Below are positions 9,315 to 62,364 of a stretch of 64,000 nt of DNA, piece by piece; position 1 is the first letter of the stretch; the number at the start of each line of letters is the position of its first letter. The stretch covers positions 22,947 to 86,946 of the forward strand of contig CAYHOS010000001.1 of assembly GCA_964358505.1 (NCBI GenBank). The letters run 5' to 3'. Under the pieces are notes generated by a model that did no database searches, was not told the DNA's origin, and saw only the letters and a list, made by a program, of their open reading frames with translations. Made by a program: the position numbers and the translations under genes. The DNA is from an uncultured Candidatus Peribacteria bacterium. Lineage in GTDB: Bacteria > Patescibacteriota > Gracilibacteria > Peribacterales > Peribacteraceae.

Positions 9315-10286
9315 ATGATGTGGGATGTTACCGTCATATCAACAATCTTTTCCCCTTTCTTGGCCATGAGAAGCAAATCAGTCGCCTCCGTGACACGGAA
9401 AATTTACTTCAAGCAGCACTTGAATTTCGCGAAAGACCCCGTGCTGCTGCACAGGTGCGTGAAGATGTTTTCCGATCCGACATATTTCAGCCTCACGAAG
9501 AAGGATTTCGAAGGGATACATATCCTCGACGCGGGTTCGGGGAACTCGGGATTCCTGGAAATCGCCATGATAGGCCTGGGCGCGGGTCACGTCACCTGCC
9601 TCGACATCGGCAAACAATGGATCCCCGCACTGCGCACGCTGCTCAAGAAGTACGCACCGCCGGAGAAGTTTGATTTCGTGGATGCAAGTACGGACAAGAT
9701 CCCATTTCCGGACAATCACTTCGATATGGTTTTTTCACAGGGCGTTCTCATGCACCTGAACAACATGGAACAGACCAAGCGCGCCTGGAAAGAGCTGGCC
9801 CGCGTAACGAAGAGGGGAGGGTATCTGTACGTCTCCCTCGGCAATCCGTCGGGCTTGCTGGAAGACGCAGTCATCCCCGCTGTCCGGAAGTACTACAACA
9901 CCAACAAGGAATTCAAGCACTTCATTGATACACAAAATCCGGACATGTGGAAAGGCTTCCTCAAGTCGCTCTCGGAGAGCATGCAGAAGCGCACGGGGGA
10001 ACATTTCGCGTACGAAAATATCGCCCCCCTGCTCGATTGGGATTTCTGCACCATGCTCCAGAATACGATACAGTGCCCCCATCGATACATCACGCAAACG
10101 GACCAGGACCATGTGCTCGCCATGTACAAACAGAACAAGTTCAAGCCTCCGCGGCGATGCAGGAGGTTCGTCGTGAGACACAATATCAGGAAGTTCTTCG
10201 CGCCTCTGCACTTTGGCGATGTCCCATACCTGTCCAAACTCGTGTACGGGCCGGGCTGCCTGGAATACATCGCACAGAAACGCTGA
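9315..10286 (+). CDS. class I SAM-dependent methyltransferase (low-GC gene)
   Basis: Motif I 'ILDAGSGNSGF' and 'FDMVFSQGVLMHL'. Visibly A/T-richer codon usage than its neighbours. Start is 9315, 9318 or 9366. Confidence 0.7.
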   Translation: MMWDVTVISTIFSPFLAMRSKSVASVTRKIYFKQHLNFAKDPVLLHRCVKMFSDPTYFSLTKKDFEGIHILDAGSGNSGFLEIAMIGLGAGHVTCLDIGKQWIPALRTLLKKYAPPEKFDFVDASTDKIPFPDNHFDMVFSQGVLMHLNNMEQTKRAWKELARVTKRGGYLYVSLGNPSGLLEDAVIPAVRKYYNTNKEFKHFIDTQNPDMWKGFLKSLSESMQKRTGEHFAYENIAPLLDWDFCTMLQNTIQCPHRYITQTDQDHVLAMYKQNKFKPPRRCRRFVVRHNIRKFFAPLHFGDVPYLSKLVYGPGCLEYIAQKR

Positions 10287-28072: not shown

Positions 28073-28101
28073 GCCCCGCTGGAAACAGAGCAGCACTCAG
28101 A

Positions 28102-28130
28102 CCCTCCTCCCATGCGGGGGAGGGTTTTTT
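28102..28130 (+). terminator. intrinsic terminator
   Basis: CCCTCCTCCC-ATGC-GGGGGAGGG stem-loop followed by T6, 30 nt after the stop at 28072. Confidence 0.75.
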
Positions 28131-44967: not shown

Positions 44968-46744
44968 GCGCGTCGGTTGTCATCCCGAGCCCGACGAGGG
45001 ACCACAACTCCCACCTCTTCCCCTCCACCCCCCCCTCCGCGACTTGTTCCAGGGGGACCTGGGCGCGGGAGAGATTCCACTGGGGCGCCCATGCCTTGTT
45101 CCACAGAATGTACTGCACGCCGTACTGCTCGATCGCCGCGGCAGGATCCCGGTCCAGCCGCCCGCAGATTCGCGTGAGGAACGCGATGTCCTTCTCCCTC
45201 AGGGTCGGGTCACGGCCGAACATCTCCTGGTGGAGGAGCCCGACCTGTCCCAGGCTGCGGGTTTCGGGCTGTTGGAGAAGGCGCGTCATGCAGGAGCGTT
45301 CGGCAAACTCCTCATCGCTGATCATCACGTTCTTGAGGTAGAAGGAGTAGAGCACGTCGTGGCGGGTGTGCCCCGCGACGAAGAGGGAGGATTGCTGATC
45401 GGAGAGGATGCGGGAACGTGGGAGCCGTTCGAGGACGGGAAGGAGATCGGCCAGGTACTGCTCCGAAAAATTCCCCTCCGTCACCCGCCACTGGTGGAAG
45501 ATGTAGCGCCCGTCCCACGCGATGCCGGCGAGGAAGATCATGGAAGAGCAGAAAGAAAGAAGCAGCCAGGTAACCGGTGGCTTCAGCCGCCGGAGAGTGG
45601 ACAGGATGTGAACCGGCGGTTGTAACCGCCGGATTTGTAAGAAAAGGACGCCGCTCAGCAGGAAGCAGGTGACCCCCGCGAAGATGAGGGGGAAGAGGTA
45701 ATGGGAGGAGAAGAAGAGCACCTTGCCGTGCATCACCTGCTGGTTGAGGACGACGAAGGCCGCGATCACCGCGAGGAGAGCCGGAAGGAAATGACGCCGT
45801 TCTGTTCCGCGCTTCCACAGAGCCCCCAGGAGCCCTGCGGACATGCCGAGGAAGAGCGTGCTGCGGATCCACGATTCGGGGAGACGCGAGGAGTAGAGGC
45901 CGCTGCGGAACCGCAGAACCTCGTAGAGCGGGTGCTGTGCCATCTGCACCGTCTGCCGGAGGAAGGGGAACGCAACGATCACCCCGATAACGCCGCCTGC
46001 GGCTAACAGGACCCGGGAGGACGATCTCCACCCGCGCCGGTCCTTCAGCAGCCACTCCCCCCCTTCCCAGAGGAGGAACAACCCCCACCACGCCCATGCG
46101 TACGTCCAGCTCCAGAAGTAGATCCCCACCAGCAAGCCGAGCACGGTGCCACCCACAGCGCTGTATATCACCCCATTGGTAGGACGCCCCGGTTTACCCT
46201 GAGCGAAACCGAAGGGTGGGGCGTCCCTGCCATCAGATCTCCTCCACGCCCGCGTGAGGAATAGAAGGGCGAGGACGACGAGGAGGAAGCTGTCCCTCTG
46301 ATGGATGGGACGGTTGAGCCCGAACAGGTTGAGCGCGGTGAAGAGGAGCGTGCCAGCGAGCGCCTGTCCACGCGTGAAGCCGAAGGAGACGAAGAGGAGC
46401 CAGAGGGCGAGGAAGAGGAGCGGGGGGACGATGGCGTCTGCCAGCTGCATGACTGCCGCCGCGCGCCACCCGGTCCGGGAGAAGAGCACGCCCCATGCTG
46501 CCTCCAGGAGAGCGGGCTGCAGGGGGAGCGGCGAAGGATCCCCCAGCACCGCCTCCGCCGCCTGCCCGGGACGCCCCGAAAGAGCCTCCTGCACACGCGG
46601 GAGGTAGTTGTACTCGTCGGTATTGAGGTGGGCCGGGATGCCGCGGTACCGTTGGTCGCGCATGCGCAGCGCCTGCGGCGCCTGCATGAGCGCGGCAAGG
46701 ACGAGCATGCACGCCCCGAGGATGATGCCCCAGCGCAGACTCAT
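44942..46744 (-). CDS. polytopic membrane protein, possible GT-C glycosyltransferase
   Basis: Internal ATG 46744 of the 841-aa ORF, with TACACT 6 nt upstream. 'NTDEYNYLPRVQEAL' loop followed by more than 10 TM segments. Confidence 0.5.
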   Translation of the reverse strand: MSLRWGIILGACMLVLAALMQAPQALRMRDQRYRGIPAHLNTDEYNYLPRVQEALSGRPGQAAEAVLGDPSPLPLQPALLEAAWGVLFSRTGWRAAAVMQLADAIVPPLLFLALWLLFVSFGFTRGQALAGTLLFTALNLFGLNRPIHQRDSFLLVVLALLFLTRAWRRSDGRDAPPFGFAQGKPGRPTNGVIYSAVGGTVLGLLVGIYFWSWTYAWAWWGLFLLWEGGEWLLKDRRGWRSSSRVLLAAGGVIGVIVAFPFLRQTVQMAQHPLYEVLRFRSGLYSSRLPESWIRSTLFLGMSAGLLGALWKRGTERRHFLPALLAVIAAFVVLNQQVMHGKVLFFSSHYLFPLIFAGVTCFLLSGVLFLQIRRLQPPVHILSTLRRLKPPVTWLLLSFCSSMIFLAGIAWDGRYIFHQWRVTEGNFSEQYLADLLPVLERLPRSRILSDQQSSLFVAGHTRHDVLYSFYLKNVMISDEEFAERSCMTRLLQQPETRSLGQVGLLHQEMFGRDPTLREKDIAFLTRICGRLDRDPAAAIEQYGVQYILWNKAWAPQWNLSRAQVPLEQVAEGGVEGKRWELWSLVGLGMTTDAPTTATSGS

Positions 46745-46766: not shown

Positions 46767-46857
46767 CACCAAATCCCAAGCGCCAAGAACCAATACGATG
46801 AACAGATTGGTGCTTGGTGCTTGGTCCTTGGGATTTCACCGGGGACTTGGTGCTTCG
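46767..46857. repeat. TTGGTNN-heptamer imperfect palindrome, copy 1
   Basis: Left arm caccaaatcccaagcgccaagaaccaa, right arm ttggtgcttggtgcttggtccttgggattt. The outer 10 bp are perfect (46771-46780 with 46827-46836). Confidence 0.8.
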
Positions 46858-46885
46858 CCCAACGAATCGCTACCATGGTACTGCC

Positions 46886-47908
46886 GTGGATTATTCCCAG
46901 CTCCTCCAGTACGTCTTCAAGCGCTTCTCGGTGCTCAGCGCCTTCCGCACGGGGTTGCCCACCTTGGGGTACCACCTCACGCGCAGCCCCCTCCCTCCCG
47001 GTGAAAAGCCCGCGCTCTTCACCATGAACATCCTGCCGCCCATGATGACCGTGTGGCACCACCTGGTGAGGAAGAACCTGGGGAACCGCGTGGACACGGT
47101 GATTTTCGATTGCTCGGGAAGGCTCGACCCCGCGGCATTCCCGGGGGCGCGCGTGCAGAAGTACCTCAACCTCTACGCCGCCACGAAGAGCGACGAGTTC
47201 CTCTACCGCATCGCGCGCCACCGCCGCATCGGATGGATCTGCGACGATGACATGTTCATCATCCGCCCGGAAGCCGCGGACATCGTGGAACGGGAACTGG
47301 GCGTCCCCGGCACGGCGAGCGTGAGCTTCCGCCCCAGGGAATGGTGGCACTTCGAGATCGACGGGAAGCCATACCCCGTGAGCAGCAGTTACTCCATCGC
47401 CTTCAACAGGGAGATTGTCGTGGAGAGGGAACGCCTCTCCCTCAAGCCCGTGGACGGCAACACCCACCCCTCACACATCGGCAAGAAGGAGCGTCGGTAC
47501 GACACGGGGGACAAGGCGAACGAGATCCTCCTCCGCAAGGGCTACCGCTGCGCCATCGTGCCGGAGGTGGAACGCGAGAAGTACGTCACGGGTTTCAGCA
47601 GCATGAGCGGCGCAGTGATGCTCCTCTGGTACTTCCACAGGCCGGAACAGATGGAAGACTACCTGCTCACTCCGTCCAAAGACCGGTGGATGGGGAACGT
47701 GCTCTATGGGGTTCTCGCGGGACTCCTGGCCATCACCAGCGTCCAGGAATGCTACGAGCGCCTCAAGGGAAGGCCGTACCCCCTCCGCTCGCTCCCCTCG
47801 CGCTCCTCGCTGGAGAAGATCCGCCGGGAGCACGAGCCGCTCCTGCGGGAAGGCCATTCGTACCGTTGGGTGGATGAAGCGAGTGAACGCCTGCGTCATG
47901 CCCTGTAG
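46886..47908 (+). CDS. hypothetical protein, possible GT-A-fold glycosyltransferase (DDD motif)
   Basis: Strong third-position G/C bias from GTG 46886, with TACCAT 9 nt upstream. Contains 'ICDDDMFII'. Alternative ATG at 47024. Confidence 0.45.
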   Translation: MDYSQLLQYVFKRFSVLSAFRTGLPTLGYHLTRSPLPPGEKPALFTMNILPPMMTVWHHLVRKNLGNRVDTVIFDCSGRLDPAAFPGARVQKYLNLYAATKSDEFLYRIARHRRIGWICDDDMFIIRPEAADIVERELGVPGTASVSFRPREWWHFEIDGKPYPVSSSYSIAFNREIVVERERLSLKPVDGNTHPSHIGKKERRYDTGDKANEILLRKGYRCAIVPEVEREKYVTGFSSMSGAVMLLWYFHRPEQMEDYLLTPSKDRWMGNVLYGVLAGLLAITSVQECYERLKGRPYPLRSLPSRSSLEKIRREHEPLLREGHSYRWVDEASERLRHAL

Positions 47909-47946
47909 AACGACATGTTTCCCCGCCCCCTGTCCCCCTTCTCCCT

Positions 47947-48570
47947 ATGATCCAGCCACGCGCCACCCGAGGGACAGGACTGCTCGAAGGCTTCCTTGCG
48001 CGCCGGCGTGCGCTGATGGCGGGCCGCCTCCTCCCTCCCGCGCCCCGGGACGGTTGCGTCGTGGACATTGGTTGCGGCTCCCACCCGCTCTTCCTCCTCT
48101 CTGCGCCGTTCCGGAGGAACATCGGCCTGGACCGCGTGACGTCCCCCGCGATGGTGGAAGCGCTCCGGACGCAAGGCGTCGAGATGATCCATCATGACCT
48201 CGAGGCCGACGCAGCCCTCCCCCTGGCGGATTGCAGCGCGGATGCCGTGACGATGCTGGCGGTCATCGAGCATATCCCGCCGGAGAGGCGCGCGCGCCTG
48301 TTGCAGGACGCCCGCCGCGTCCTCAAGCCGGGCGGACGCGTGGTTCTCACGACCCCCGCCGCTTGGACCGTCTTCATCCTGCAGTTCCTGAGCAGGACGG
48401 GTTTCGTCAGCCACGAGGAGATCGAGGAACACCACGAACTCCTCAGCGGAAGAGGGCTCCGCCGCCTCCTCGAGGGCGCAGGATTTGGGAGGGTGCGCCG
48501 GGGATCGTTCGAGGCCGGCCTCAATCTGTGGGCAACGGGGGAACGCATGGAAGACGCGCCAGGAACGTGA
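47947..48570 (+). CDS. class I SAM-dependent methyltransferase
   Basis: 'VVDIGCGSHPL' and 'VTMLAVIEHIPPERR...LKPGGRVVLTTP'. Confidence 0.7.
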   Translation: MIQPRATRGTGLLEGFLARRRALMAGRLLPPAPRDGCVVDIGCGSHPLFLLSAPFRRNIGLDRVTSPAMVEALRTQGVEMIHHDLEADAALPLADCSADAVTMLAVIEHIPPERRARLLQDARRVLKPGGRVVLTTPAAWTVFILQFLSRTGFVSHEEIEEHHELLSGRGLRRLLEGAGFGRVRRGSFEAGLNLWATGERMEDAPGT

Positions 48571-49918
48571 CGGGAACGGCATCCGTCCGGAAGAGGATTG
48601 CCGCACCCGCAGGCGGCGACGGCGTGATGGCATAGAGGGGGCAGGACGCGCCGGCATCGGAAGTCACACGCATGTCGGGACGGAAGACGCCCGTGCGCCA
48701 CGTCGCAGCATGGAGATCCGGCTGGACGAGGACCCTGCTCCCCGGTTCGGCGATGCGGTTGAGTTCGTTCCGCGCCAGATCCCAGGCGTGGAATCCTTCG
48801 GTTGTGAGATGGAGGTCGGGGGGGATGAGGCCGATGGTCCGGTCGAACCAAGCATTGAAGGATCCGTACGCATAGACACCGAGGCCGAGCAGCTGTCCAC
48901 ACACGATGACCGCGACGAACGGGATACGCAGGAATTCCGGACGCAAGGCGCGGGCCGCGATGATCAAGCCGAAGGCCGCAAAACCGAAGAGAATGGGGTA
49001 TCCGGGCAGGGCGAAACGGGTGCCGAGCGTCCACCAGAAGGAAGTGAGTGCCCATCCCGCCAGCATGGAGAACACGAGGAACCACTGTTTCCGCCCCTCC
49101 TTCCAGAGCCCCAGGAGGGCAAAGGGGAAGAGGAAGAGGATGTTATGGAGGGGATTGGCGTAGTAGAGGGCATTGGTTACGAGCCGCGCGCCCAGGGGAT
49201 CATCCGCAGGCCAGAGGGCGAAGTATCCGCTATGGAGGGGATTGCCGAACGTGAGGGCGTTGCGCAGGAACCAGAGGGAGAACAGGAAGCCGCCGGCGGC
49301 CATCCCCCACCAGAACCAAGGGCTCCGGCGATGGCGCCCGCGGAAGAGGATGACGAAGAGAAACAGGGGGAAGAGCGGGGCGCCGTTGTAGCGCGTGAGG
49401 GAAGCGAGCCCCGCAAGCAGGCCGGCGGCAAGATAGAGCCTTGCATCGGCGGCGGCGCGCTGGAAAGCCGCAAGGGAGAGGAGGAAGAGGAAGAGGAAAG
49501 TGATATCAGAGGAAGCCACCATGATCTCGTACACGAAACCGTGGTGGAGGGTCAGGAAGGCCGATGCGGCCAAAGCCGTCGTTCGTCCGAACGGCTTCGC
49601 GAGCAGCGCGTAGGTCGCCAGTAGCCCTCCCCATCCCATGAAGAGGGCGGCGGTCTTCATCCCCGCGCCGTAGCCGAGCACTGCTGCGAAGGGGTAAGAG
49701 AGAATGGCATGAAGGGGAAGATGGGTGGCGTAGGGTACGCCGAAGAGCGCGTACGTTCCCGTCTTCCACACGCTCTCCCCCGTCAGCGCGTATATGGCGC
49801 TGTCACTGACGAGCGGATAGCGGAATCCCGGAAGGACCAGGAACGCCAGGAGAACACAGAGGCCGGCGAGCAGGAGGGGTACCTCACGCCCTTTCCATGA
49901 CGGAGACGGAAGCATCAT
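48521..49918 (-). CDS. GT-C glycosyltransferase (ArnT/PMT_2-like)
   Basis: First periplasmic loop is 'VSDSAIYALTGESVW', followed by more than 10 TM segments. Sits directly downstream of a GT2 polyprenol-P transferase. Confidence 0.65.
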   Translation of the reverse strand: MMLPSPSWKGREVPLLLAGLCVLLAFLVLPGFRYPLVSDSAIYALTGESVWKTGTYALFGVPYATHLPLHAILSYPFAAVLGYGAGMKTAALFMGWGGLLATYALLAKPFGRTTALAASAFLTLHHGFVYEIMVASSDITFLFLFLLSLAAFQRAAADARLYLAAGLLAGLASLTRYNGAPLFPLFLFVILFRGRHRRSPWFWWGMAAGGFLFSLWFLRNALTFGNPLHSGYFALWPADDPLGARLVTNALYYANPLHNILFLFPFALLGLWKEGRKQWFLVFSMLAGWALTSFWWTLGTRFALPGYPILFGFAAFGLIIAARALRPEFLRIPFVAVIVCGQLLGLGVYAYGSFNAWFDRTIGLIPPDLHLTTEGFHAWDLARNELNRIAEPGSRVLVQPDLHAATWRTGVFRPDMRVTSDAGASCPLYAITPSPPAGAAILFRTDAVPVTFLARLPCVPPLPTD

Positions 49919-50618
49919 CGGGGATGGGATGGAGGACGGAGATGCGGATCTTCAGGAAGACCCACATCCAACGGAACCAATCCTTCCAGCTGATCTTCTT
50001 CCCCTCCTCGATGGTACGGGGCGCGTACGAAATGGGGTACTCCGCAATGGGCACCTCGAAACGCGCGAGGAGCGCGGTGAGCTCGGGATCGAAACGGAAG
50101 TCGTTCTCCCGCAGCGGGATCATCTTGAGGAGGTCGGTCTGCACCATCTTGTAGCACGTCGGCTGGTCGGTGAGGCGCGTGCGGTACAGAACATTGCACG
50201 CGTACGTGAGCAGGGACCCCCCGATGAAGAAGAGGAGGTGCACGAACTGCTTCTGCTGCTTCAGCCGGCGGGAGCCGAACACGGCCGGCAGGTTCCGTGC
50301 CTCGGCGTACGAGAGCATGAGAGGGATCTCCTCTGGGCTGTACTCCAGGTCCGCGTCCTGCACGATGGTGTAGCGGCCCACGGCGTGCCCGTACCCCATG
50401 CGCACGGCGGACCCTTTGCCGCCGTTGGGTTTGCTCAGGACCGTGTCCCGCGGCAGCGCGCGCTCACGGAGAATCTGGAGTGAGCGATCCCGCGAGCCGT
50501 CATCCACGTAGATGACTTGCGCGAACCCGCATGCCTTCTGCAATCTCTCCATGATCACGGGCAAGGTCTTCTCCTCATTGTAGACGGGCACGACGATGGA
50601 GAGCCGGAGGCGATCCAT
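49884..50618 (-). CDS. GT2 polyprenol-phosphate glycosyltransferase (DPM1-like)
   Basis: 'SIVVPVYNEE', 'YVDDGSRD' and 'QDADLEY'. Internal ATG of ORF 49884..50702. Confidence 0.8.
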   Translation of the reverse strand: MDRLRLSIVVPVYNEEKTLPVIMERLQKACGFAQVIYVDDGSRDRSLQILRERALPRDTVLSKPNGGKGSAVRMGYGHAVGRYTIVQDADLEYSPEEIPLMLSYAEARNLPAVFGSRRLKQQKQFVHLLFFIGGSLLTYACNVLYRTRLTDQPTCYKMVQTDLLKMIPLRENDFRFDPELTALLARFEVPIAEYPISYAPRTIEEGKKISWKDWFRWMWVFLKIRISVLHPIPDDASVSVMERA

Positions 50619-50678
50619 GGCGGCTAGAGTAGCTGGTTGGGGCGGTGGCGTCACGGAGGAACGCGCAGAATACAGCAT

Positions 50679-50749
50679 CAAGTACCAAGTACCAAGTACC
50701 AAAACTCAAGAATCCTATTGGTCATTGGTTATTGGTGCTTGGTACTTCG
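50679..50749. repeat. TTGGTNN-heptamer imperfect palindrome, copy 2
   Basis: (CAAGTAC)x3 left arm faces ttggtcattggttattggtgcttggtacttcg. AAGTACCAAG (50680-50689) pairs with CTTGGTACTT (50738-50747). Confidence 0.8.
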
Positions 50750-51769
50750 TTGATCATCCCTCATCTCCTCCACCAACCTCCCCACTAGCCTCACAAGATT
50801 ATGGTGCGCGAGGACTTCCTGCCTCAGTACCTTCCCCAGCGCTTCCTTCTCCCCCTGAAGAAGATCGAGCATTGCCCGGACTTTCTCCCCGAAGTTCTCG
50901 TGCGTGGCCCGGCACTCCTCGGGGAGGAAGGGGCAGGAGGCTTCGGATGCCGATACCACGGGACATCCGCACGCCATCGCCTCCAGCAGCGCCTTATCCA
51001 ACCCCCCGCCCCCCGCATGGAGGTACAGTCCCGCTCGGCGGAGCAGGGGGAGGAGCTCCGCATGCGTGAGGAAAGTGATCGTGGTGCGGTCTTGCAGATT
51101 GTGGGCGGCGATGAACGCTTCCAGCTCCGTCCGGTACCGTTCATCTTCCGCCGTGATGACGCCGCCGGCGATGGAGAGGCGGTAGGGAGGGGGGAGGGCG
51201 GCGAGGAGTTGGAGGAAGAGCTCGTGCCGCTTGATGCGCGTCAGGCGCCCTACCGTGACGAGGAGGTGCGGGTCCCGCTCGGCGGGAAGGCCGGGCGAGA
51301 ACGTCCGGGTATCGATGCCGTGCCCCGTGACGACATTCTTGGGGGAGGGGAAGGGGAGGCCGTACGCCGTCGCGCTGAAGACTCTGCGGACGTGTCGCAG
51401 CGCGCAGCGCAGGACCCATCCGCCCCGGCGGATTTCGTACCACAGGTACACGGGCTTGCGGAGGAGGGGGAAGAGCGGCCAGCCGATCACCACCCAAATG
51501 GGCGTCATGTGGACGAACACCGCGTCGTACGCCCTGCGGTGTTTCCAGAGGAGGGAGAGGAAGCGGATGATCTGCGACATCTTCGACGCGCCCCGTTCCT
51601 TCCGGAGCGAGAGGATCCGGACATTCGGCGGAAAATGGTAATCGCCCGTCGCCTGCCCGATGACGGTGATCTGCTTGCAGTGCAGCGCGAACTCCTCGAT
51701 CCACCGGTGGAAGAACCCCAGGATGGGATCCTGCCGGTCCACCCGCTGCGTGATGATGAGGAGGTTCAT
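50729..51769 (-). CDS. GT-B (GT4-like) glycosyltransferase
   Basis: 'MNLLIITQRVD' and 'LDKALLEAMACGCPVV'. The last codons (STKHQ*) lie inside a TTGGTNN repeat. Confidence 0.65.
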   Translation of the reverse strand: MNLLIITQRVDRQDPILGFFHRWIEEFALHCKQITVIGQATGDYHFPPNVRILSLRKERGASKMSQIIRFLSLLWKHRRAYDAVFVHMTPIWVVIGWPLFPLLRKPVYLWYEIRRGGWVLRCALRHVRRVFSATAYGLPFPSPKNVVTGHGIDTRTFSPGLPAERDPHLLVTVGRLTRIKRHELFLQLLAALPPPYRLSIAGGVITAEDERYRTELEAFIAAHNLQDRTTITFLTHAELLPLLRRAGLYLHAGGGGLDKALLEAMACGCPVVSASEASCPFLPEECRATHENFGEKVRAMLDLLQGEKEALGKVLRQEVLAHHNLVRLVGRLVEEMRDDQRSTKHQ

Positions 51770-52917
51770 CGTTCGGAATAGCGTGCCTCCCCCTCTTCCT
51801 GGGGGAGAGGGGGTCGGGGGGTGAGGGACTGGAGGAATGCCGCATACCTTTCCAACGCCGCCCTCCTTTCAAACGTCCGTCCAACCTTTGCCGCCTCCTC
51901 TCCCAGTCTCCCGCAGAGGGAGGGGTCTTTGAGGAGAAGCCGGATGGCATCTGTGAGAGACGACGCTTCCATCGCAATGAGGCTCCCGCTCTCGCCATCG
52001 CGGATCACGTCCGGCATCACCCCCACGCGCGTCGCAATCACGGGAAGCCCCGCGGCCATCGCTTCCAACGCCACGCGCGGCCCCCCCTCGCTGCGGGAAT
52101 TCATGACGAAGACCCGCGCCGATTGCAGCGCGCGCGCCACATCCTCCTGCGCAGGCAGCCACCCGGCGAACGTCACCCGGGCGGAGAGTCCCCACGCCCG
52201 GACGCGACGCTCGCAGTCAGCGCGCAGGGGGCCGTCCCCCACCACGAGAAGGGAGACGCCCGGCAGCGAACGGAGGGCACGGAGGAGTTCCACCAAGCCC
52301 TTGTTCGCCACCAGGCGCCCGCAGAAGGCCAGGTCGTAGCGCTTGGTGACGCGCGGGTCCGGCCGCCAGAGCGAGGTCTCGATGTAGAAGGAGGGGACGA
52401 GGCGGAGCTTCTCCCGCGGCACCCCCCACCGATGGAGGAGGCTGCGCGCTTCCCCGCTCACCACGCGCACGGCGGCGGCCGAGCGCGCCTCGAGCGGGAG
52501 GAAGAGGCGCGAGAGAAAGCGGCCAGCCCACTCGGCGGGGGAGGAAGGCCTGGGATACCCGACGACGTGGTGGACCTCCAGCGCATACGGCACGTCCGTG
52601 GCGCGGTGGAGCCGCAGCGCGCCGAGCCCGTTATAGAAGGGGGGATACTCATGCACCGTCATGGCGTCATGCCCGTAGAGGCCGGCGAGCTCGCGCCCCT
52701 TCCGTACAATCCACCGCGGCTGCAGGGGTAGCGGCCAGGGCGAGGGGTGGAGGAACGTGTGGGGGAACGGCGCAAGGGTGACGGGGCGGGCGGCGGCGTG
52801 TGGGCAGATGACGTCGATGCGCTCGAAGTGCTCGCGCAGGATCTCCAACGTGTACCAGAACGCGCTCTTCTTCCCTTGGGAAAGCGAACGATCGCCGGAA
52901 ATCATCAAGAGTTTCAT
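51766..52917 (-). CDS. GT4-family glycosyltransferase
   Basis: 'MKLLMISGD', 'GRLVANKG' and 'NSRSEGGPRVALEAMAAGLPVIAT'. ATGA overlaps at both ends. The C-terminal tail is encoded by a GC-rich palindrome. Confidence 0.75.
   Translation of the reverse strand: MKLLMISGDRSLSQGKKSAFWYTLEILREHFERIDVICPHAAARPVTLAPFPHTFLHPSPWPLPLQPRWIVRKGRELAGLYGHDAMTVHEYPPFYNGLGALRLHRATDVPYALEVHHVVGYPRPSSPAEWAGRFLSRLFLPLEARSAAAVRVVSGEARSLLHRWGVPREKLRLVPSFYIETSLWRPDPRVTKRYDLAFCGRLVANKGLVELLRALRSLPGVSLLVVGDGPLRADCERRVRAWGLSARVTFAGWLPAQEDVARALQSARVFVMNSRSEGGPRVALEAMAAGLPVIATRVGVMPDVIRDGESGSLIAMEASSLTDAIRLLLKDPSLCGRLGEEAAKVGRTFERRAALERYAAFLQSLTPRPPLPQEEGEARYSER
51787..51827. repeat. GC-rich palindromic element, copy B (3' end of GT4 gene)
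   Basis: cctccccctcttcctgggggagaggggg followed by TCGGGGGGTGAGGG. Encodes the 'TPRPPLPQEEGE' tail. Confidence 0.75.
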
Positions 52918-53993
52918 AGTAACGCTTGGAACAACGCCCGATGCTCCCTTGCTACATCTTCCCACGAGCGCTTCTGGAACGGAGAAGCCGATTTCTGGGC
53001 GATGACCTCGTAATGGTGCTCCGCCTCCAGCACGGCGCGGGTGATTTCTTCCGTGGTACGGAGCGGGGCGACAATCATGCCATCGCGCAGCTCGTCCCCC
53101 AGCCCCGTTTCCGCGGTGAGGAGGACGGGGAGGCCGTGCGAGCGCGCCTCCAGCGCGGCATGCGGGCTGATCTCCGTGAGGGACGGGATGATGAGGAGGT
53201 CATGCTCGCGCAGCGTCTTCTCCTTCTCCTCCCCGTGCACCGGGGGCAGGAACGTGAGGCGCCCCTTGAGGCGCAGCTTCTGCGCCAGCTGCGAGAGCTC
53301 GCGCGAGGCCGGGCCCTCCCCCTGCAACGTGAGCGTGACATGCGGCAGGTTGGCGACGGCGCGGAGGAGGGGGCGGAGGTTCTTGAACCGCACGAAGCGC
53401 CCGAGGAAGAGGAGGCGGAACGGCTCATGCCGCACATGGAGCAGCAGTTCCCCGTGGGGCAGCGCGTTCTCGATCACCGAGTGGCGCGGCAGACGGGGAT
53501 AGACGCGCTTGTAGAGTTGTTCCTGGAACCAGGTGGAGAAGACCACGTGGTCGAAGCTCCGCAGGATGCGCCCCAGGATGGCCATGGCGGGCGGACGCGC
53601 CGCGTACCACTGGCTCAGCGTCTTCTTGCCGCGCAGGTCCGTGTACCGCTCCCACAGGAAATCGCCTCCCAGCCGCAAGATCTTCTTGGGCTTCTTGAGC
53701 CGCGCCATCATGAGAGGCACCCCCACGCTCACCGCGGAGAAGCCGTACACGATGTCCGCGTCCTTCGCCTCCCGTTTGAGCGCGCGGGCGAAGCGCCACC
53801 AGCGGAGCAGGGGGCCGCGGCGGGAAACCGTGACCACCTTCCAAGGAACTTCCTCCACGGGGCCGCGCGGCGCGTAGGCGACCACCGTCACCTGCTCGTC
53901 CATCTCCATGAGACGCCGCGCGATGTTCTTCACGTACGTGGCGGGGCCGCCGATGGTGGGGGGATACACGCCGGTAGCGAGGATGATTTTCAT
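52914..53993 (-). CDS. GT4-family glycosyltransferase
   Basis: 'MKIILATGVYPPTIGGPATY' and 'PSLTEISPHAALEARSHGLPVL'. Confidence 0.7.
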   Translation of the reverse strand: MKIILATGVYPPTIGGPATYVKNIARRLMEMDEQVTVVAYAPRGPVEEVPWKVVTVSRRGPLLRWWRFARALKREAKDADIVYGFSAVSVGVPLMMARLKKPKKILRLGGDFLWERYTDLRGKKTLSQWYAARPPAMAILGRILRSFDHVVFSTWFQEQLYKRVYPRLPRHSVIENALPHGELLLHVRHEPFRLLFLGRFVRFKNLRPLLRAVANLPHVTLTLQGEGPASRELSQLAQKLRLKGRLTFLPPVHGEEKEKTLREHDLLIIPSLTEISPHAALEARSHGLPVLLTAETGLGDELRDGMIVAPLRTTEEITRAVLEAEHHYEVIAQKSASPFQKRSWEDVAREHRALFQALL

Positions 53994-54007
53994 AGGAAGA
54001 GGAGTAA

Positions 54008-54086
54008 GAATGACCAATACCCAATGACCAATGCTCTGGTTATTTCGTTTGATGATTGGCCATTGGTGCTTGGTGCTTGGTCATTC
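54008..54086. repeat. TTGGTNN-heptamer imperfect palindrome, copy 3
   Basis: gaatgaccaatacccaatgaccaatg faces attggccattggtgcttggtgcttggtcattc. Outer GAATGACCAA/TTGGTCATTC pairing is perfect. Confidence 0.8.
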
Positions 54087-55020
54087 GATCCCGATACCAC
54101 TCCACCGTCTTCTTCAGTCCCTCTTCAAAAGCCACGGACGGCTTCCACCCCAGTTTCCGCAACGGCGTGGAATCCAGCGCGTAACGCCAATCATGGCCGG
54201 GGCGGTCGGGGACGGACGTGAGCAGGCTCTCGGGCTTGCCCAGGATTGTAAGGACCATTGCCGCCACGTCCCGGTTCCGGCGCTCCTCATTGGCGGAGAC
54301 GTGATAGACGGAATCGGAGCCGTTGGGGAGGCGGAGGACCATCTCCAGCGCGTCGCAGTGGTCGGTGACGTAGAGCCAATCCCGCTTGTTCTTCCCCGCG
54401 GCATAGATGGGGACGGGCTCGCCCTTGAGGGCATGGCGGATGACGGTGGGGATGAACTTCTCCCCCGCCTGGTGGGGGCCGTAGTTGTTGGTGCAGCGCG
54501 CAATGCGGACGTGCAGGCCGTACGTGCGCGCGGCGGCGAGGAGGAGCAAATCGCCGGAAGCCTTGCTGGCCGCATAGGGGGAGCTGGGGCGCAGGGGATC
54601 CGCGGGATCCTTGGGCTTGTCCTTGTCCCGCAGGTCTCCGTACACCTCGTCGGTGGAGATGTGGAAGAGGAGGACCTTAGGATGGAGCTTGCACGCCTCC
54701 ACCAGGCTCTGCACGCCAAGCACGTTGGTGTGGAGGAAGGGGACAGCGCTCTGGATGCTGCGGTCCACGTGCGTCTCGGCGGCGAAGTTGACGATGGCCT
54801 CGATCCCGTACCGCTCCAGAAGCTGAGAGACGAGCTCAAAGTCCACGATGTCCCCCTGCACGAAGCGGATGCGGTTGAGAACGGGGTCCAGGTACGTCTT
54901 GTCCGCCGCGTACGTGAGCTTGTCGAGGACAATCACCGTGTCCTCCGGATGCCGCTCGATGTGCCGCAGCACGAAGTGCGAGCCGATGAATCCCGCCCCG
55001 CCGGTAACAAGGAGGTTCAT
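54040..55020 (-). CDS. rfbB: dTDP-glucose 4,6-dehydratase
   Basis: 'LVTGGAGFIGSH' and 'YAASKASGDLL'. TATACT lies 6 nt upstream of ATG 55020. The last 14 codons lie in a TTGGTNN repeat. Confidence 0.85.
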   Translation of the reverse strand: MNLLVTGGAGFIGSHFVLRHIERHPEDTVIVLDKLTYAADKTYLDPVLNRIRFVQGDIVDFELVSQLLERYGIEAIVNFAAETHVDRSIQSAVPFLHTNVLGVQSLVEACKLHPKVLLFHISTDEVYGDLRDKDKPKDPADPLRPSSPYAASKASGDLLLLAAARTYGLHVRIARCTNNYGPHQAGEKFIPTVIRHALKGEPVPIYAAGKNKRDWLYVTDHCDALEMVLRLPNGSDSVYHVSANEERRNRDVAAMVLTILGKPESLLTSVPDRPGHDWRYALDSTPLRKLGWKPSVAFEEGLKKTVEWYRDRMTKHQAPMANHQTK

Positions 55021-55026
55021 GGGAGC

Positions 55027-55032
55027 AGTATA
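55027..55032 (-). promoter_or_regulatory. -10-like TATACT, 6 nt upstream of rfbB ATG 55020
   Basis: Recurrent pattern. Confidence 0.5.
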
Positions 55033-55057
55033 GAGCATGGAAGGGGTATGGAGGGGT

Positions 55058-55122
55058 GGGTATTGAGTAGCGAGGAAACGGCCTATTCATACTCAATACG
55101 CAATACTCTATACTCAATACCC
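55058..55122. repeat. rfbB/rfbA intergenic palindrome and TACTCAATAC direct repeats
   Basis: GGGTATTGAGTA (55058-55069) is the exact reverse complement of TACTCAATACCC (55111-55122). TACTCAATAC is repeated at 55090 and 55111. Confidence 0.75.
55109..55114 (+). promoter_or_regulatory. -10-like TATACT, 10 nt upstream of rfbA ATG 55125
   Basis: Recurrent pattern. Confidence 0.4.
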
Positions 55123-55124
55123 TT

Positions 55125-55925
55125 ATGAAAGGCGTCCTCATCTGCGGCGGCACCGGCTCGCGCCTACGCCCCCTCACGGAGGTGACGAACAAGAGCCTCC
55201 TCCCCGTCTACGACCAGCCGCTCGTGCTCTACCCCTTGCAGGTGCTTCTCGAGGCACGGATCCGTGACATCATCATTATTACGGGGAACGAGCACATGGA
55301 CCAGATGGCGGGCTTCCTGGGAAGCGGGCAGCGCTTCGACTGCCGCTTCAGTTACCGCGTGCAGGACACGGCGGGCGGCATTGCGCAAGCGCTGGGCATG
55401 GCGGAGGAGTTCGCGGCCGGCGACGATGTGTGCGCCATGTTGGGGGACAACATATTCTTCGATTCCCTTGCCCCTTTCATCCAATCCTTCAAGGGGGGCG
55501 GCCATGTGTTCCTCAAGCAAGTCTCCGATGCGCGGCGGTTCGGCGTTGCGGAGATCGAGCGCGGCCATGGGAAGGACACTATCTCCGTCGTCTCCATTGA
55601 GGAGAAGCCGCGCAGGCCCAAGTCCGACTTCGCCGTGACGGGATGCTACATCTACGACAACCGCTGCTTCGACATCATCCGCGCCCTCAAGCCCTCGGGA
55701 CGGGGCGAGCTGGAGATCACGGACTTGAGCAAGGCGTACATGGAGATGGGCTTGCTACGCGCCACCATTCTCAAAGACGAGTGGATCGACGCGGGAACGT
55801 TCGAGAGCCTGTTCCGCGCGGCGACGGTCGTCCGGCAACGCACGCTGGATGCGGCGGAGAAGGCAACGACGGCGATCGCTCGCAAGCAACCGCAGAAGCC
55901 CAGGCGGGCTGCCGCCCGGTGGTGA
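55125..55925 (+). CDS. rfbA: glucose-1-phosphate thymidylyltransferase-type sugar nucleotidyltransferase
   Basis: 'ICGGTGSRLRPLT' G-loop, 'GGIAQAL' and 'EKP' motifs. Divergent from rfbB. Confidence 0.75.
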   Translation: MKGVLICGGTGSRLRPLTEVTNKSLLPVYDQPLVLYPLQVLLEARIRDIIIITGNEHMDQMAGFLGSGQRFDCRFSYRVQDTAGGIAQALGMAEEFAAGDDVCAMLGDNIFFDSLAPFIQSFKGGGHVFLKQVSDARRFGVAEIERGHGKDTISVVSIEEKPRRPKSDFAVTGCYIYDNRCFDIIRALKPSGRGELEITDLSKAYMEMGLLRATILKDEWIDAGTFESLFRAATVVRQRTLDAAEKATTAIARKQPQKPRRAAARW

Positions 55926-56373
55926 TCACACAGGTAAGATATCCTCATACATCTCCCCATACCTCCCCGCAATCTCCCCCCAATCGTACTTCTTCGCATT
56001 CTCCACGCCCGCCGCCGAGAGCTTTTGACGCAAACCGGAGTCGTTGAGCAGCGTGCCGATTGCCTCCGCCGCCGCCTTGGGGTCATCCGGCGGGACGAGG
56101 AGACCGGTGACGCCGTCATGGACTACGTCGGGGATGCCGCCCACGTTCGTCGCCACCACGGCGCATCCCGCCGCCTGCGCTTCCAGGAAAACGTTCCCCA
56201 GCGCCTCGCTGCGCGAGAGGCCGACGAAGATTTCCGCTTCCGCGTACTCCTCGTGGATATCGGGGAAGGGGATGAACCCCCGGAACGTCCCCTCGGGGAG
56301 GAAGGAGCGGGATTGCATTTCCAATAATCTCCGCCGGCTTCCATCACCGACAATATGAATGTCAGGAGGAACG

Positions 56374-56418
56374 CCCCTCTCCCCCTGGGAGAGGGGGGGG
56401 GGGGGGGGGGCCCCCCCC
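56374..56418. repeat. GC-rich palindromic element, copy D, fused to G18C8 homopolymer
   Basis: CCCCTCTCC-ccctg-GGAGAGGGG, then G-run 56393-56410 (18 nt) and C-run 56411-56418 (8 nt). Confidence 0.85.
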
Positions 56419-56873
56419 ACAGCAGATGGAGCGCCTGCAGCAACGTATCCACTCCCTTCATCGGTTCCAAACGTCCGGCGAAGAGGATGCGTCCCGGAAC
56501 TTTCTGGATCCTTCCGCAGGTCTCGCGGATGGACGCGTACGGTACCCCGTTGGGTATATGGCGGACGTCCTTGCGGCCGTAATGTTCCGAACGTGTGACG
56601 AGCGTCCTGCTGATGGCCGTGAGCGCGTGGGCGGAGCGGTACATGAGCGAGAGCAGGAACGACGTGTTCGTGCTCTGCTGCGTGAGCACGCGCTTGGCGC
56701 GGGGGACGATGAAGCGGCAGAGGACCAAGGCCAGCCCCGCGTAGGACTCCAGCACGGCATGGATGGCCTGCGGCTTGATCCTGCGGACCACAAACGGCGC
56801 AAGAAAGGGAAAGAGCCACTTGTCCCATGGGATTCCCAAGCCAACACGTATGACCTCGACATCACGATGCCCC

Positions 56874-56892
56874 CCTCCCCCCCCGGGGGAGG
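56874..56892. repeat. GC-rich palindrome CCTCCCCC-ccc-GGGGGAGG inside GT4 domain 2
   Basis: Read directly from the sequence. Contains an 8-nt C run and is translated in-frame as 'SSPGGGGGH'. Confidence 0.7.
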
Positions 56893-57624
56893 AGCCGAGG
56901 GAGAGGGAATCACGCCGGGGCAAATCACGACGTAACTTTGCCGTGACAATGGTGAACTCATACGTTTCCTTCAGTGCCTTCGGCACCTCCTCCGCGCACG
57001 CCTCCGCCCCGCTGCGGAAGGGGGTGAGGAAAGCCGAGAGGATGACGATACGGTGCATCTCCAATGTTGCATTCTTCTCCACTTCAAACAACTGCCGATA
57101 CGCGCGCCCAACCACGTCCCAGCTGAACACCTGCCCTATCCGTTGCCGCGCCGCTTCCCCCAAGGACTTCCGCTTGGCGGGATCGGCGATCAGCCGGCGG
57201 ATGTGCGCGGCGAGCGCTTGCCTGTCACCAGGAGGGAAAAGGAAGCCGGCCTGCCGGCCGTAGTCCCCCGATGGGGAGCGAAGGCCGGAGATGCCGTTCT
57301 GGAGGAGGAAGCCGTTGCCGCCCACGTCGCTCGCCACGCACGCGCAGCCGGACGCCATGGCTTCCATGAGTGCGTTCGAAAGGCCTTCGCTGTGGGAGGG
57401 GAGGACGAAGATATCCGTACCGGAGAGGATGGCGGGGATATCATCCCGAAGGCCGGTGAACGTCACTTGGTCCATATAGCGCAGGACGAGAGGATTGCCT
57501 TTCTTGAACCAACCGACAACCTGGATATGCAAAGGAGGGATCTCCTCCTTGATCGGCACCGCCGCGGCGAGGAAGTCCTCCACGCCTTTCACGGACTCCA
57601 ACCGCCCAATATACGTCACGGTCA

Positions 57625-57655
57625 ATTGGTCATTGGTGCTTGGGAATTGGTGCTT
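57625..57655. repeat. TTGGTNN-heptamer half-element inside GT4 coding sequence
   Basis: attggtcattggtgcttgggaattggtgctt, translated in-frame as 'GKHQFPSTNDQ'. Confidence 0.6.
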
Positions 57656-58106
57656 CCCGTAGGGCGCAGGATCAATCCCCGTAGGAATGACCGTCGTCTT
57701 CCGCGCAATCATCAGCTTTCTCAGGAGCGCGGGCGGCTGCGGATGGAACGTAACCACGCGGTCGGCGAGCAGGAGGAGCAGCCAACCCAGCGTCCATGCA
57801 TACAGGAAAGCGCCGAGCTTCGGCAGCCGGCCCCGCGGCCACCACGTGATGCCCACGAGCGCATCGGTGAGGAGGAGGAACTTCCGGCCGGCGAGCCGGA
57901 GGCGGATGCCCGCGAGCGACGTCCAGAAGAGGAGCTTGTTGATGACGATGCGGTCGGGCTTTTCCTCCTTCACAATCTTCCCTACGAACCGTGCGAAGCC
58001 GAAGGCGATGCCGTAGTTCCAGGGATCCTTGAGGAAGATGTCGCGCATCCTGTATATGGTGAGAGTATCGGAGACCTTCTCTACGTGCGTGCGCCCTATG
58101 GCCTCG

Positions 58107-58156
58107 CTCCCCCCTCTCCCCTCGGGGGAGGGGTCGGGGGTGGGGGGGCAGGGGGG
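58107..58156. repeat. GC-rich palindromic element, copy C (in-frame in GT4 domain 1)
   Basis: ctcccccctctcccctcgggggagggg followed by TCGGGGGTGGGGG and further G-runs. Encodes 'PPCPPTPDPSPEGRGGS'. Confidence 0.75.
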
Positions 58157-58295
58157 ACGAGGTCCCATGCAAACAACAACGACCCTATACCCCAACCTCT
58201 GCCACAATTCCGCCAGCTTCACCGAACTCACCATCCAGCGATGATGTTCCTTCCAGTACGGTGAGATGAGGAGGATGGTCTTCATAGCATGAACC

Positions 58296-58372
58296 GAATG
58301 ACCAAGGACCAATACCCAATGACCAATGCCCGGCGACGTTTGGTCATTGGTGCTTGGTCATTGGTGCTTTGG
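58296..58372. repeat. TTGGTNN-heptamer imperfect palindrome, copy 4
   Basis: gaatgaccaaggaccaatacccaatgaccaatg faces tttggtcattggtgcttggtcattggtgctttgg. The left arm is nearly identical to copy 3. Confidence 0.8.
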
Positions 58373-58727
58373 ATTGTCCTTCGGATGCTTCCGCCAACCC
58401 CGCCTCCCTCAACGCAAGATGCCGCACCAGCTTCGCATACTTCTGCTCCAGCTCCTCCAGCCGGATCACCAGGTAGAACACCATAAAGAAGAGGACGCCC
58501 AGGAACGTGACGATCACGGCGTTCTCCTGGTTCTCAATCCCCGTGATCGCGGAGAGGTACGAGAGGAGGTTGGGGTACAGCGCTACGATGGAAATGGCGC
58601 CCCAGAAGAGCGTCCACAAGCCCGCTTCCAGCACGCTCTTCCTCCGGCGCAGCACCAGGTTCCACGCGTAGAACACGGCGACGGCGGAGATGAGGGGGGT
58701 GATGATTTGGTAGGGCGTAAGGCGCAT
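58344..58727 (-). CDS. DUF2304-family small membrane protein
   Basis: Three TM segments plus a C-terminal 'RLEELEQKYAKLVRHLAL' helix. Downstream of a GT2, the usual partner of this family. Confidence 0.65.
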   Translation of the reverse strand: MRLTPYQIITPLISAVAVFYAWNLVLRRRKSVLEAGLWTLFWGAISIVALYPNLLSYLSAITGIENQENAVIVTFLGVLFFMVFYLVIRLEELEQKYAKLVRHLALREAGLAEASEGQSKAPMTKHQ

Positions 58728-58770
58728 GTGCCCATCATAGCGAAGAAAGGAGGTTGTGCCATACGACACG

Positions 58771-62333: not shown

Positions 62334-62364
62334 GAACAATGAAACAATGGAACAATGAAACAAT
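62334..62364. repeat. tandem octamer repeat (RAACAATG)x4
   Basis: gaacaatg aaacaatg gaacaatg aaacaat, in the divergent region upstream of sufS. Confidence 0.8.

Follow-up and report, generated by a model that had tools for sequence, protein, structure and literature searches.

Are the long hairpins that lie between the genes of a streamlined bacterial genome maintained for their sequence, for their structure alone, or for neither? The question is raised by a 64,000-nucleotide (nt) stretch of DNA from an uncultured Candidatus Peribacteria bacterium (GenBank assembly GCA_964358505.1, contig CAYHOS010000001.1, positions 22,947 to 86,946), referred to here as the window. An initial annotation, made from the sequence without database searches, noted four imperfect palindromes within 12 kb of the window. 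Each was built from tandem 7-nt units of the form NNACCAA in one arm and TTGGTNN in the other, and each was situated at a gene junction.

Intergenic heptamer repeats have been known since the short tandemly repeated repetitive (STRR) sequences of cyanobacteria, and inverted intergenic arrays of heptamers are likewise known. What is new here is that this hairpin family, with TGACCAA/TTGGTCA arms, is present in the Pirellulaceae as well as in the window, and that hairpin sequence is replaced at conserved gene junctions within a lineage of the candidate phyla radiation (CPR).

Results

Four heptamer hairpins in a glycosylation gene cluster

The setting of the hairpins is a cell-envelope glycosylation cluster of a Peribacteraceae (Peregrinibacteria, CPR) bacterium. 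By Pfam assignment, the flanking genes on the minus strand encode a PMT_2-like protein, a family 2 glycosyltransferase (GT2), three family 4 glycosyltransferases (GT4), RfbB, a double GT4 protein and a DUF2304 protein; rfbA is on the plus strand. The closest named RfbB homologues are from a “Patescibacteria group bacterium” (100% identity, partial) and a “Candidatus Peribacteraceae bacterium” (81%), and the entire cluster is syntenic in contigs of 180–420 kb that bear the 81% homologue. In an independent ENA assembly (L001), 99.9% identical to the window region, the hairpins are identical.

All four copies were present where the initial annotation had placed them, at gene junctions (Table 1). 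In every copy, ACCAA-type heptamers make up the left arm and TTGGT(G/C)(C/A) heptamers the right arm, with a loop of 10–25 nt between them. Copy 1, correctly described as lying in a divergent region, occupies most of a 141-nt spacer, from which a gene for a membrane protein runs on the minus strand (ATG at 46744) and a conserved hypothetical gene on the plus strand; the GTG start of the latter (46886) is fixed by an orthologue of 88% identity. Copy 2 lies between a GT4 gene (50729–51769, minus strand) and the GT2 gene (start at about 50618), copy 3 between rfbB (54040–55038, minus strand) and a GT4 gene (ATG at 53993), and copy 4 between the DUF2304 gene (58344–58769, minus strand) and the double GT4 gene (ATG at 58285).

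The heptamer hairpins are non-random and fold strongly. Dinucleotide shuffles predict 0.02 occurrences of the phased motif TTGGTNNTTGGT in the window; 14 were found, all of them within 46.8–58.4 kb. When one mismatch was allowed, 33 matches were obtained compared with 7.7 expected, only one of them outside this stretch. Tandem Repeats Finder reported period-7 arrays of 2.7–5 copies in each arm. A repeat finder connected the copies with one another. Copies 3 and 4 were described initially as having nearly identical left arms, and these share 96% identity over 26 nt. Each copy folded into a hairpin of 25–34 bp on either strand (ΔG of −30 to −50 kcal/mol, z of −4.2 to −9.8), with values for copy 1 of −46 to −50 kcal/mol and z of −4.6 and −5.7. 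The GC content of the hairpins is 0.40–0.55 compared with about 0.64 for the window, which agrees with the lower GC content reported at the outset.

Two familiar explanations had been set aside by the initial annotation, and both remain excluded. CRISPR arrays consist of 24–48-nt direct repeats with unique spacers of similar length; the units here are 7 nt and contiguous. An intrinsic terminator was rejected on the low GC content of the stems and the lack of a T-run: no U-tract follows any of the four copies, and a terminator scan of the window gave no more than chance. A canonical intrinsic terminator (GACCCTCCTCCC-ATGC-GGGGGAGGGTTTTTT) is found at 28100–28130, indicating that this CPR genome does use classical terminators. 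It is sited in one of the few spacers of the tightly packed 1–44 kb region, in the spacers of which no tandem-repeat hairpins were found. Strand asymmetry of folding was considered as a sign of a sense-strand RNA, but neither in the window nor in relatives did one strand consistently fold better with respect to the direction of the genes.

Gene ends within the elements

Three minus-strand genes, confirmed by Pfam as rfbB, GT4 and DUF2304, read into an element and terminate there with tails of the ...TKHQ type. RfbB ends in ...MTKHQAPMANHQTK, with its TAA (54040–54042) in the loop of copy 3. The 346-residue GT4 protein ends in ...STKHQ, with its TAA (50729–50731) in what is the 5′ arm of copy 2 on the sense strand. 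The DUF2304 protein ends in ...APMTKHQ, and its TGA opens the last TGACCAA unit in copy 4. The likeness of these endings follows from the frame logic of the heptamers, given that (GCACCAA)3 reads APSTKHQ and (TGACCAA)3 reads stop-PMTNDQ; three TGACCAA units in succession therefore place a stop in each reading frame.

The tails are extra or, in the DUF2304 protein, divergent in comparison with homologues. Among the 60 best RfbB homologues examined, most end 2–6 residues past an EWY motif, and the RfbB tail is therefore extra. The DUF2304 orthologue at L123, a syntenic locus from a related Peribacteraceae genome, has a different tail, supplied by the 9-mer hairpin at that locus. RfbB with 100% identity is also encoded in a third public assembly (P0001, NCBI; 318 residues, partial), where the product ends within the element-read tail (...MTKHQA).

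The initial annotation regarded the supply of stop codons to upstream genes as a property of the elements. This is better read as a by-product than as a function, given that TGACCAA and TAACCAA units hold stops, that the tails are extra in comparison with homologues, and that open reading frames (ORFs) at the metagenome loci described below often stop before the element. Where an ORF there faces either arm, its stop tends to fall between 12 nt outside and 10 nt inside the element edge, and about one-quarter of such ORFs end inside it.

The same gene ends bear on the suggestion of a ribosome-sensitive attenuator, or translational coupler, in which a terminating ribosome would open the stem and free the next start about 10 nt past the 3′ arm. 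The rfbB, GT4 and DUF2304 stops do lie in a 5′ arm or loop, the next ATG is 10–15 nt past the 3′ arm at copies 3 and 4, the junctions at L123 are similarly arranged, and no Shine-Dalgarno sequence is visible upstream of these genes. Coupling is nevertheless less likely than these features imply, and we regard it as distinctly improbable: about three-quarters of the facing ORFs in the metagenome family stop ahead of the element, at the related locus L125 about 25 nt separate the rfbB stop from the hairpin that follows, copy 2 is some 60 nt away from the next start, and both copy 1 and a further hairpin of ATAC type are in divergent spacers. Family elements also occur in both orientations and at convergent junctions. 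The lack of orientation bias relative to transcription and the position of copy 1 bear equally on an element for RNA stability, which had been proposed alongside attenuation.

Mechanical ORF calls open at TTG codons inside the TTGGT arms at 46814, 50702 and 58312 of the window. Some public SufC proteins adjoining such elements have 286–290 residues, 11–18 above the usual 272–275, and this may have the same cause; TTGGT arms probably create spurious N-terminal extensions in annotations.

A hairpin family shared with the Pirellulaceae

Reference genomes, one per species, were scanned for four phased TTGGTNN units, which yielded at least 120 loci. Among the matches listed, about half were cyanobacterial, with the remainder from Planctomycetota, Acidobacteriota, Bacteroidota, Verrucomicrobiota, Gemmatimonadota and others, and most were one-sided arrays beside gene ends. 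A parallel scan of metagenome contigs with the exact 18-mer TTGGTCATTGGTGCTTGG gave at least 120 matches. Among those listed, 82 of 130 hits had at least three CCAA within 110 nt upstream, indicative of the same hairpin.

The metagenome consensus is GAATGACCAATGACCAA-ATCCCAA-TGACCAAT, a loop of 10–30 nt, and TTGGTCA-TTGGTGC-TTGGTCATTGGTCATTC. When 20 sequences were aligned, the arms were nearly invariant and the loops unalignable. The third unit of the left arm is ATCCCAA in the family majority, which is not complementary to TTGGTGC and so implies a conserved internal loop. In copies 3 and 4 this position, opposite TTGGTGC, is held by TACCCAA; copies 1 and 2 are more diverged. Copy 4 is nearest to the family consensus and shares 83% identity over 87 nt with metagenome locus L191.

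A covariance model, R1, was seeded with 20 metagenome elements only and no window sequence. It matched all four window copies (Table 1) and nothing else in the window at a significant level. When applied to the first 100 metagenome loci, R1 recovered ∼70 distinct hairpins at 35–93 bits, often several on a contig. By contrast, of 100 listed TTGGTNN-array reference loci only one, from an uncultured Pirellula (L041), was matched; the cyanobacterial TTGGTNN arrays are thus a different thing from the hairpin family. One seed contig with three elements (L200) was typed as Pirellulaceae given that its SufC is 96% identical to “Pirellulaceae bacterium” proteins. On these sequence matches, the four window copies are assigned to a family that is also found in the Pirellulaceae (Planctomycetota) and is abundant in public metagenome contigs. 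The possibility that the metagenome carriers are simply the window organism was rejected, no locus exceeding ∼50% protein identity with window genes.

The description of the repeat as lineage-specific has therefore to be abandoned, since a model built from unrelated metagenome contigs matches every copy, and both L200 and L041 are planctomycetal. The three related Peribacteraceae genomes, moreover, lack the TGACCAA/TTGGTCA family at the same junctions and have other hairpins instead, as set out below.

For metagenome elements with both neighbors typed, 20 of 25 lie between co-directional genes, and their orientation relative to those genes is 11 to 9, that is, without bias. Together with the folding of both strands, this fits a role that needs only a stem.

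Searches of databases and literature returned little that resembles the family. Rfam gave no match at gathering thresholds over the whole window and none at E ≤ 1 over 46.6–58.5 kb, and BLAST of the consensus element against the PLSDB plasmids gave one-arm matches only (Rhizobium, Serratia and Pantoea). In the literature on repeats in Peribacteria and on heptamers or repetitive extragenic palindromic (REP) sequences in Planctomycetes, no description of a TGACCAA/TTGGTCA hairpin family was found; searches with 7- and 14-mers returned only primer noise. A phage was considered as the vector, but in IMG/VR the 18-mer was present in only 3 contigs (within L247–L250), one of which has two opposed copies ∼800 nt apart. 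These contigs are classed as viral and may represent Planctomycetes phages or host fragments. In contigs of Planctomycetes type (L017, 2920–3210; L165, L245 and others), TTGGT/ACCAA arms often form the outside of composite palindromes of larger size, with other heptamer arms (AAACGG/CCGTTT, CGACATT) and GC-rich cores such as GGCGCGCC in the interior.

Conservation of the arms across phyla, including the asymmetric unit, beside free loops would call for a partner that reads sequence. Each 7-nt unit might accordingly be a site for a cold-shock-domain protein or other single-strand binder; its binding would open the stem and thereby modulate either read-through or how the following gene is translated. 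CspA and CspB bind ATTGG/CCAAT, and the heptamers contain these sequences, with ATTGG (the Y-box core) in one arm and CCAAT in the opposite one. The strict 7-nt register also equals the one-protein-per-heptamer binding reported for Bacillus CspB (Morgan 2007 and Sachs 2012, as quoted in PMC4679880), and one-sided TTGGTNN arrays near gene ends in many phyla would be in keeping with a binding array. No cold-shock-domain gene was found in the window, and a cold-shock protein gene adjoins a family element only at L153 (gene at about 480–700, directly upstream of the element at 750–871), a single anecdote. Furthermore, the relatives use different units (GAAACCGAA, AGAAGAATC and CATTGTTC) at the same junctions, so that no single sequence-specific binder explains the lineage-wide pattern. 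We regard a binding array as improbable.

Replacement of hairpin sequence at conserved junctions

The same junctions were compared in the syntenic loci of three related Peribacteraceae genomes (L122/L123/L124, L125 and L126). At the rfbB–GT4 junction, where the window has the TTGGT heptamers of copy 3, L123 has inverted 9-mers (AGAAGAATC), L125 a GC-rich stem of about 100 nt, and L126 inverted 9-mers of another sequence (GGCAGGAAA). At the DUF2304–GT4 junction, occupied in the window by copy 4, inverted 9-mers (GAAACCGAA) are present in L123, and no stem stood out in L125. The rfbA/rfbB divergent spacer holds ATAC-type heptamers in the window and L123 and 9-mers in L125 and L126. In the sufS-side spacer, the window has a one-sided octamer array, and L123 and L125 have inverted octamers.

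In the relatives, most of the junctions examined hold a long hairpin of unrelated sequence, mostly of other 7-, 8- or 9-mers, and those that were folded against shuffles gave z of −4.5 to −7.7. Alignments showed coding matches as far as the conserved protein end, after which an unrelated hairpin fills the spacer to ∼10 nt before the next ATG. A search of these loci with R1 gave no match beyond a weak in-gene array. Position and structure are therefore conserved at the rfbB–GT4 junction in four genomes, while the sequence and even the repeat period have been replaced. The other tested junctions follow the same pattern where hairpins are present.

Comparison of orthologous loci for presence or absence of the element, as had been suggested initially, identified one empty site. 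The GT4–GT2 spacer of L123 is without a hairpin, which indicates that copy 2 is an insertion of ∼73 nt in the window; a small indel between the two sequences lets the GT4 frame run into the insertion. The accompanying suggestion of target-site duplications was not borne out: no direct repeat of ≥5 nt was present within 6 nt of the ends of any copy, and none was evident between the filled and empty copy 2 sites.

Such a polymorphism would be expected of a selfish or neutral repeat without host function. This could be a mobile palindrome with its enzyme encoded elsewhere, similar to a hairpin-forming REP doublet (REPIN) or a MITE (a miniature transposable element with inverted repeats), or an array grown by slippage with its arms matched by template switching, in either case persisting where harmless, in spacers and gene 3′ ends. 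The many dispersed copies per contig in metagenome loci, the random orientation relative to genes and the variable, unconstrained tails are consistent with this account. Among long simple repeats in bacteria, moreover, heptamers are reported to be both the most over-represented class and the one most prone to slippage, the process put forward to explain their excess (Mrazek 2007, as quoted in PMC4679880 and PMC4692102). The 1445-nt public contig on which P0001 is encoded would also fit an assembly break at a multi-copy repeat. The account is harder to reconcile with the absence of target-site duplications and of the GTAG or CGTC tags of REP elements, and with loops that, unlike the interiors of MITEs or REPINs, are unrelated between copies. 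Nor would slippage alone rebuild the same 30-nt arm and odd unit in two phyla. In addition, the same junctions keep hairpins in four genomes despite full sequence turnover, which in streamlined genomes of ∼1.2–1.4 Mb argues for selection on having a hairpin. A selfish or neutral repeat without host function is, on balance, somewhat unlikely.

Table 1. Repeat elements of the window and the protein tails read from them
Feature	Position	Strand or location	Sequence or product	Remark
Hairpin copy 1	46767-46857		Left arm of ACCAA-type heptamers; right arm (TTGGTGC)2 TTGGTCC	R1 41.0 bits, E = 9e-7
Hairpin copy 2	50679-50749		Left arm (CAAGTAC)3; right arm TTGGTCA TTGGTTA TTGGTGC TTGGTAC	R1 45.2 bits, E = 1e-7
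Hairpin copy 3	54008-54086			R1 49.5 bits, E = 1e-8
Hairpin copy 4	58296-58372			R1 70.8 bits, E = 1.5e-13
GT4 extra C-terminal tail	50729-50758	Minus	DDQRSTKHQ and stop	L123 orthologue ends ...EEMRG and stop
RfbB extra C-terminal tail	54040-54084	Minus	MTKHQAPMANHQTK and stop	Read from copy 3
DUF2304 divergent C-terminal tail	58344-58394	Minus	AEASEGQSKAPMTKHQ and stop	
Fifth heptamer hairpin	55044-55117	rfbB/rfbA divergent spacer	Unit ATACTCA / TGAGTAT	Fold −34.4 kcal/mol, z −7.2
One-armed heptamer array	57626-57655	Minus; linker between two GT4 domains	In-frame KHQFPSTNDQ	No hairpin
Octamer array	62335-62364	Divergent spacer adjoining a cysteine-desulfurase-like gene	(AACAATGA) × 3.8	One-sided
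GC-rich palindromes	51790-51826, 56374-56410, 56872-56908, 58111-58147	Glycosyltransferase coding regions	CCCCTCTCCCC..GGGGGAGGGG	

Relationship to known repeat classes

Heptanucleotide repeats of the STRR type were reportedly described in cyanobacteria by Mazel in 1990, and TTGGTCA is, we presume, the STRR2 unit of Calothrix and Nostoc. The window copies qualify as long simple sequence repeats of this type in having at least three tandem 7-nt units beyond chance, and cyanobacterial STRR sequences are likewise tandem heptamers, mainly intergenic. They differ in that the cyanobacterial TTGGTNN arrays are mostly one-sided and that none among the 100 listed loci searched matches R1.

Mycobacterial interspersed repetitive units are direct repeats of 40–100 bp that lie between cistrons, supply the stop of the upstream gene and abut the next start. 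The window elements are alike in giving an upstream stop and abutting the next start, and unlike them in being heptamer palindromes.

REP elements have been proposed to act as stabilizers of mRNA 3′ ends or as partial terminators. Along with bacterial interspersed mosaic elements (BIMEs) and REPINs, they resemble the window family in being dispersed, imperfect intergenic palindromes, often placed directly after stops and in either orientation. The window stems are much longer and consist of tandem units, no two copies have related loops, and no RAYT (Y1) transposase is known to accompany them. The definition of REP elements rests on GTAG or CGTC tags (PMC3733652); no consistent tag of this kind was found within 15 nt of any copy, which in this respect sets the window elements apart from REP and BIME sequences.

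A close similarity is to the GGGAATC arrays of Xanthomonas, which are mostly intergenic, lie near the upstream ORF and, in related species, are found again between the same genes while differing in length and sequence; inverted array pairs with the potential to form stem-loops are present in 70–75 cases per genome (Rehm et al. 2015, PMC4692102). The window hairpins share the convergent, closely spaced tandem arrays of one 7-nt unit, the mostly intergenic position near an ORF end, and the retention of position with variation in length and sequence. Their unit is different (TTGGTNN/NNACCAA), and TTGGTSM units, with only two consecutive G, have no G-quadruplex potential such as the G-rich Xanthomonas unit provides. 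The window family is also distinguished by arm sequences that are fixed across phyla and by the conserved asymmetric unit.

TAACTGA heptamer repeats occur in Beggiatoaceae, Cyanobacteria and Bacteroidetes, and cold-shock proteins have been proposed as their binders (MacGregor 2015, PMC4679880). Like the window family they contain stops in all frames in one orientation, such that they overlap gene ends only briefly, and have a patchy cross-phylum distribution. They are, however, direct repeats just upstream of start codons with no predicted structure, whereas the window elements are inverted arrays that form long stems.

Mobile elements of more conventional architecture also offer partial parallels. 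In common with MITEs, Correia elements and Rickettsia palindromic elements, the window element is short, non-coding and bounded by inverted repeats; in common with MITEs and in-frame palindromes, it is present or absent between relatives and can add codons to a neighboring gene. By contrast with these, its arms are arrays with a variable number of units, and it has neither a target-site duplication nor a conserved interior, conservation in the 20-sequence alignment being restricted to the arms. The case for a MITE on this sequence comparison is weak. An integron attC site was also rejected. Neither R″ (RYYYAAC) nor R′ (GTTRRRY) cores are present in copies 2–4, copy 1 has a single chance-like match outside the stem, and synteny of the cluster is conserved between genomes.

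Other arrays and repeats in the window

The initial annotation listed, in addition to the full copies, a half copy within a coding region. A one-armed array is indeed present there, but it is not half of an element. It matches R1 no better than chance (E 1.4), and its KHQFPSTNDQ segment is conserved in frame in the GT4 orthologues of two relatives, as KHHGPMTNDQ in L123 and KHQVPSTNNQ in L125. The array is thus an old coding array, and its interpretation as an inserted half element was rejected.

An in-frame array within a GT4 gene, together with the confinement of all copies to a glycosyltransferase cluster and the proneness of heptamer arrays to slippage suggested in the sources quoted above, might be taken as a sign of contingency repeats, in which gain or loss of units would alter gene ends or the GT4 frame and thereby vary surface glycans by phase. 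The arrays are imperfect with mixed units and are identical in two independent assemblies, the in-gene array is in frame and conserved in three genomes, and changes to a 3′ tail would not turn genes off. Phase variation, like translational coupling, is accordingly among the less likely explanations, and of the two it seems to us the more remote.

The fifth heptamer hairpin, of ATAC type, was not listed in the initial annotation. An orthologous hairpin with the same unit type (ATACTCA/ATACGCA) is found at 9900–9998 of L123, and the window array includes TATACT, a −10-like hexamer flagged by a promoter scan. Octamer arrays (AACAATGA and CATTGTTC) occupy spacers around nifU and cysteine-desulfurase genes, as inverted hairpins in relatives (L123 at 683–793 and 2560–2683; L125 at 2156–2260) and as a one-sided array in the window.

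A second family, of GC-rich palindromes, lies within glycosyltransferase coding regions and encodes Pro/Gly-rich stretches such as PSPEGRGG. One such copy (58088–58162) sits in a hypervariable loop at which the orthologues hold different repeat-derived sequence, that of L123 being (AGCGGCC) × 4.3. A 39-nt in-frame insertion in a GT4 gene at 57245–57283 (LRSPSGDYGRQAG, with the palindrome GGCCGGCAGGCCGGC) is absent from both orthologues. At 56393–56418, a G8 C18 homopolymer block breaks the double GT4 gene into two frames; L001 has TCCCTCACCCCCAACCCC at the same place and a single ORF of 783 residues. The form in the window probably results from an error of assembly or sequencing.

Discussion

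The best explanation of these observations, which we put forward tentatively, is that the elements are REP/BIME-like intergenic hairpins for which only structure matters, in the window belonging to a heptamer family shared with the Pirellulaceae. Each is a palindromic heptamer-repeat module, with a TGACCAA-type array and an inverted TTGGTCA/TTGGTGC-type array around a short, non-conserved loop, and the spacers of the cluster would be under selection to hold a long stem. Transcription in either orientation would give a stem of 25–35 bp that punctuates the polycistronic mRNA, where it might act as a 3′-end barrier, a partial stop or a decoupler of neighboring cistrons. The presence of stops in every frame within three TGACCAA or TAACCAA units would allow an element to abut, or to replace, the last codons of a gene. 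Copies might arise by copy-and-paste, or by slippage with arm-to-arm correction.

Several considerations weigh against a structure-only role. That the hairpins act at the RNA level is something that we infer. A 3′-end or intercistronic role is inapplicable to copy 1 and to the ATAC-type hairpin, both of which lie in divergent promoter spacers, and the stem would be melted by ribosomes translating as far as a stop situated in the 5′ arm or the loop. There is no U-tract after any copy in a genome with at least one canonical terminator elsewhere. Only one gene cluster of the 64-kb window contains the hairpins, and this restriction could reflect the history of the cluster rather than function. Finally, structure alone does not account for the near-identity of arms across phyla, down to the same odd unit; this suggests transfer or a sequence-specific partner. 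Arm identity of this kind keeps alive both the mobile-element and the sequence-reading-partner explanations.

A more far-reaching proposal, which we consider unlikely on present evidence, combines these elements. The TGACCAA/TTGGTCA hairpin would be an undescribed cross-phylum element, the arms and mismatched unit of which are read by a dedicated partner, either a hairpin-specific transposase acting on single strands or a heptamer-binding protein of cold-shock type, and which has passed between Planctomycetota and the CPR. More broadly, tandem 7–9-mer hairpins may be a general punctuation system for the surface-glycan operons of Peribacteraceae, in which slippage and arm-to-arm correction turn the sequence over while the stem stays.

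Independently of which explanation is correct, a model is now available with which to search for a hairpin family that is sharply defined: its arms are fixed, its asymmetric unit is conserved and its loops are free. Annotation is affected in a practical way, through TTG-started ORFs within the arms and spurious tails. That the family occurs in a streamlined CPR genome implies either that it has passed between phyla or that a constraint is shared. The rfbB–GT4 junction, which keeps a strong hairpin in four related CPR genomes with its sequence and period replaced, while one other spacer is empty in one relative, constitutes a natural experiment. If the hairpins are functional, they would represent a major unannotated layer of operon organization in these organisms.

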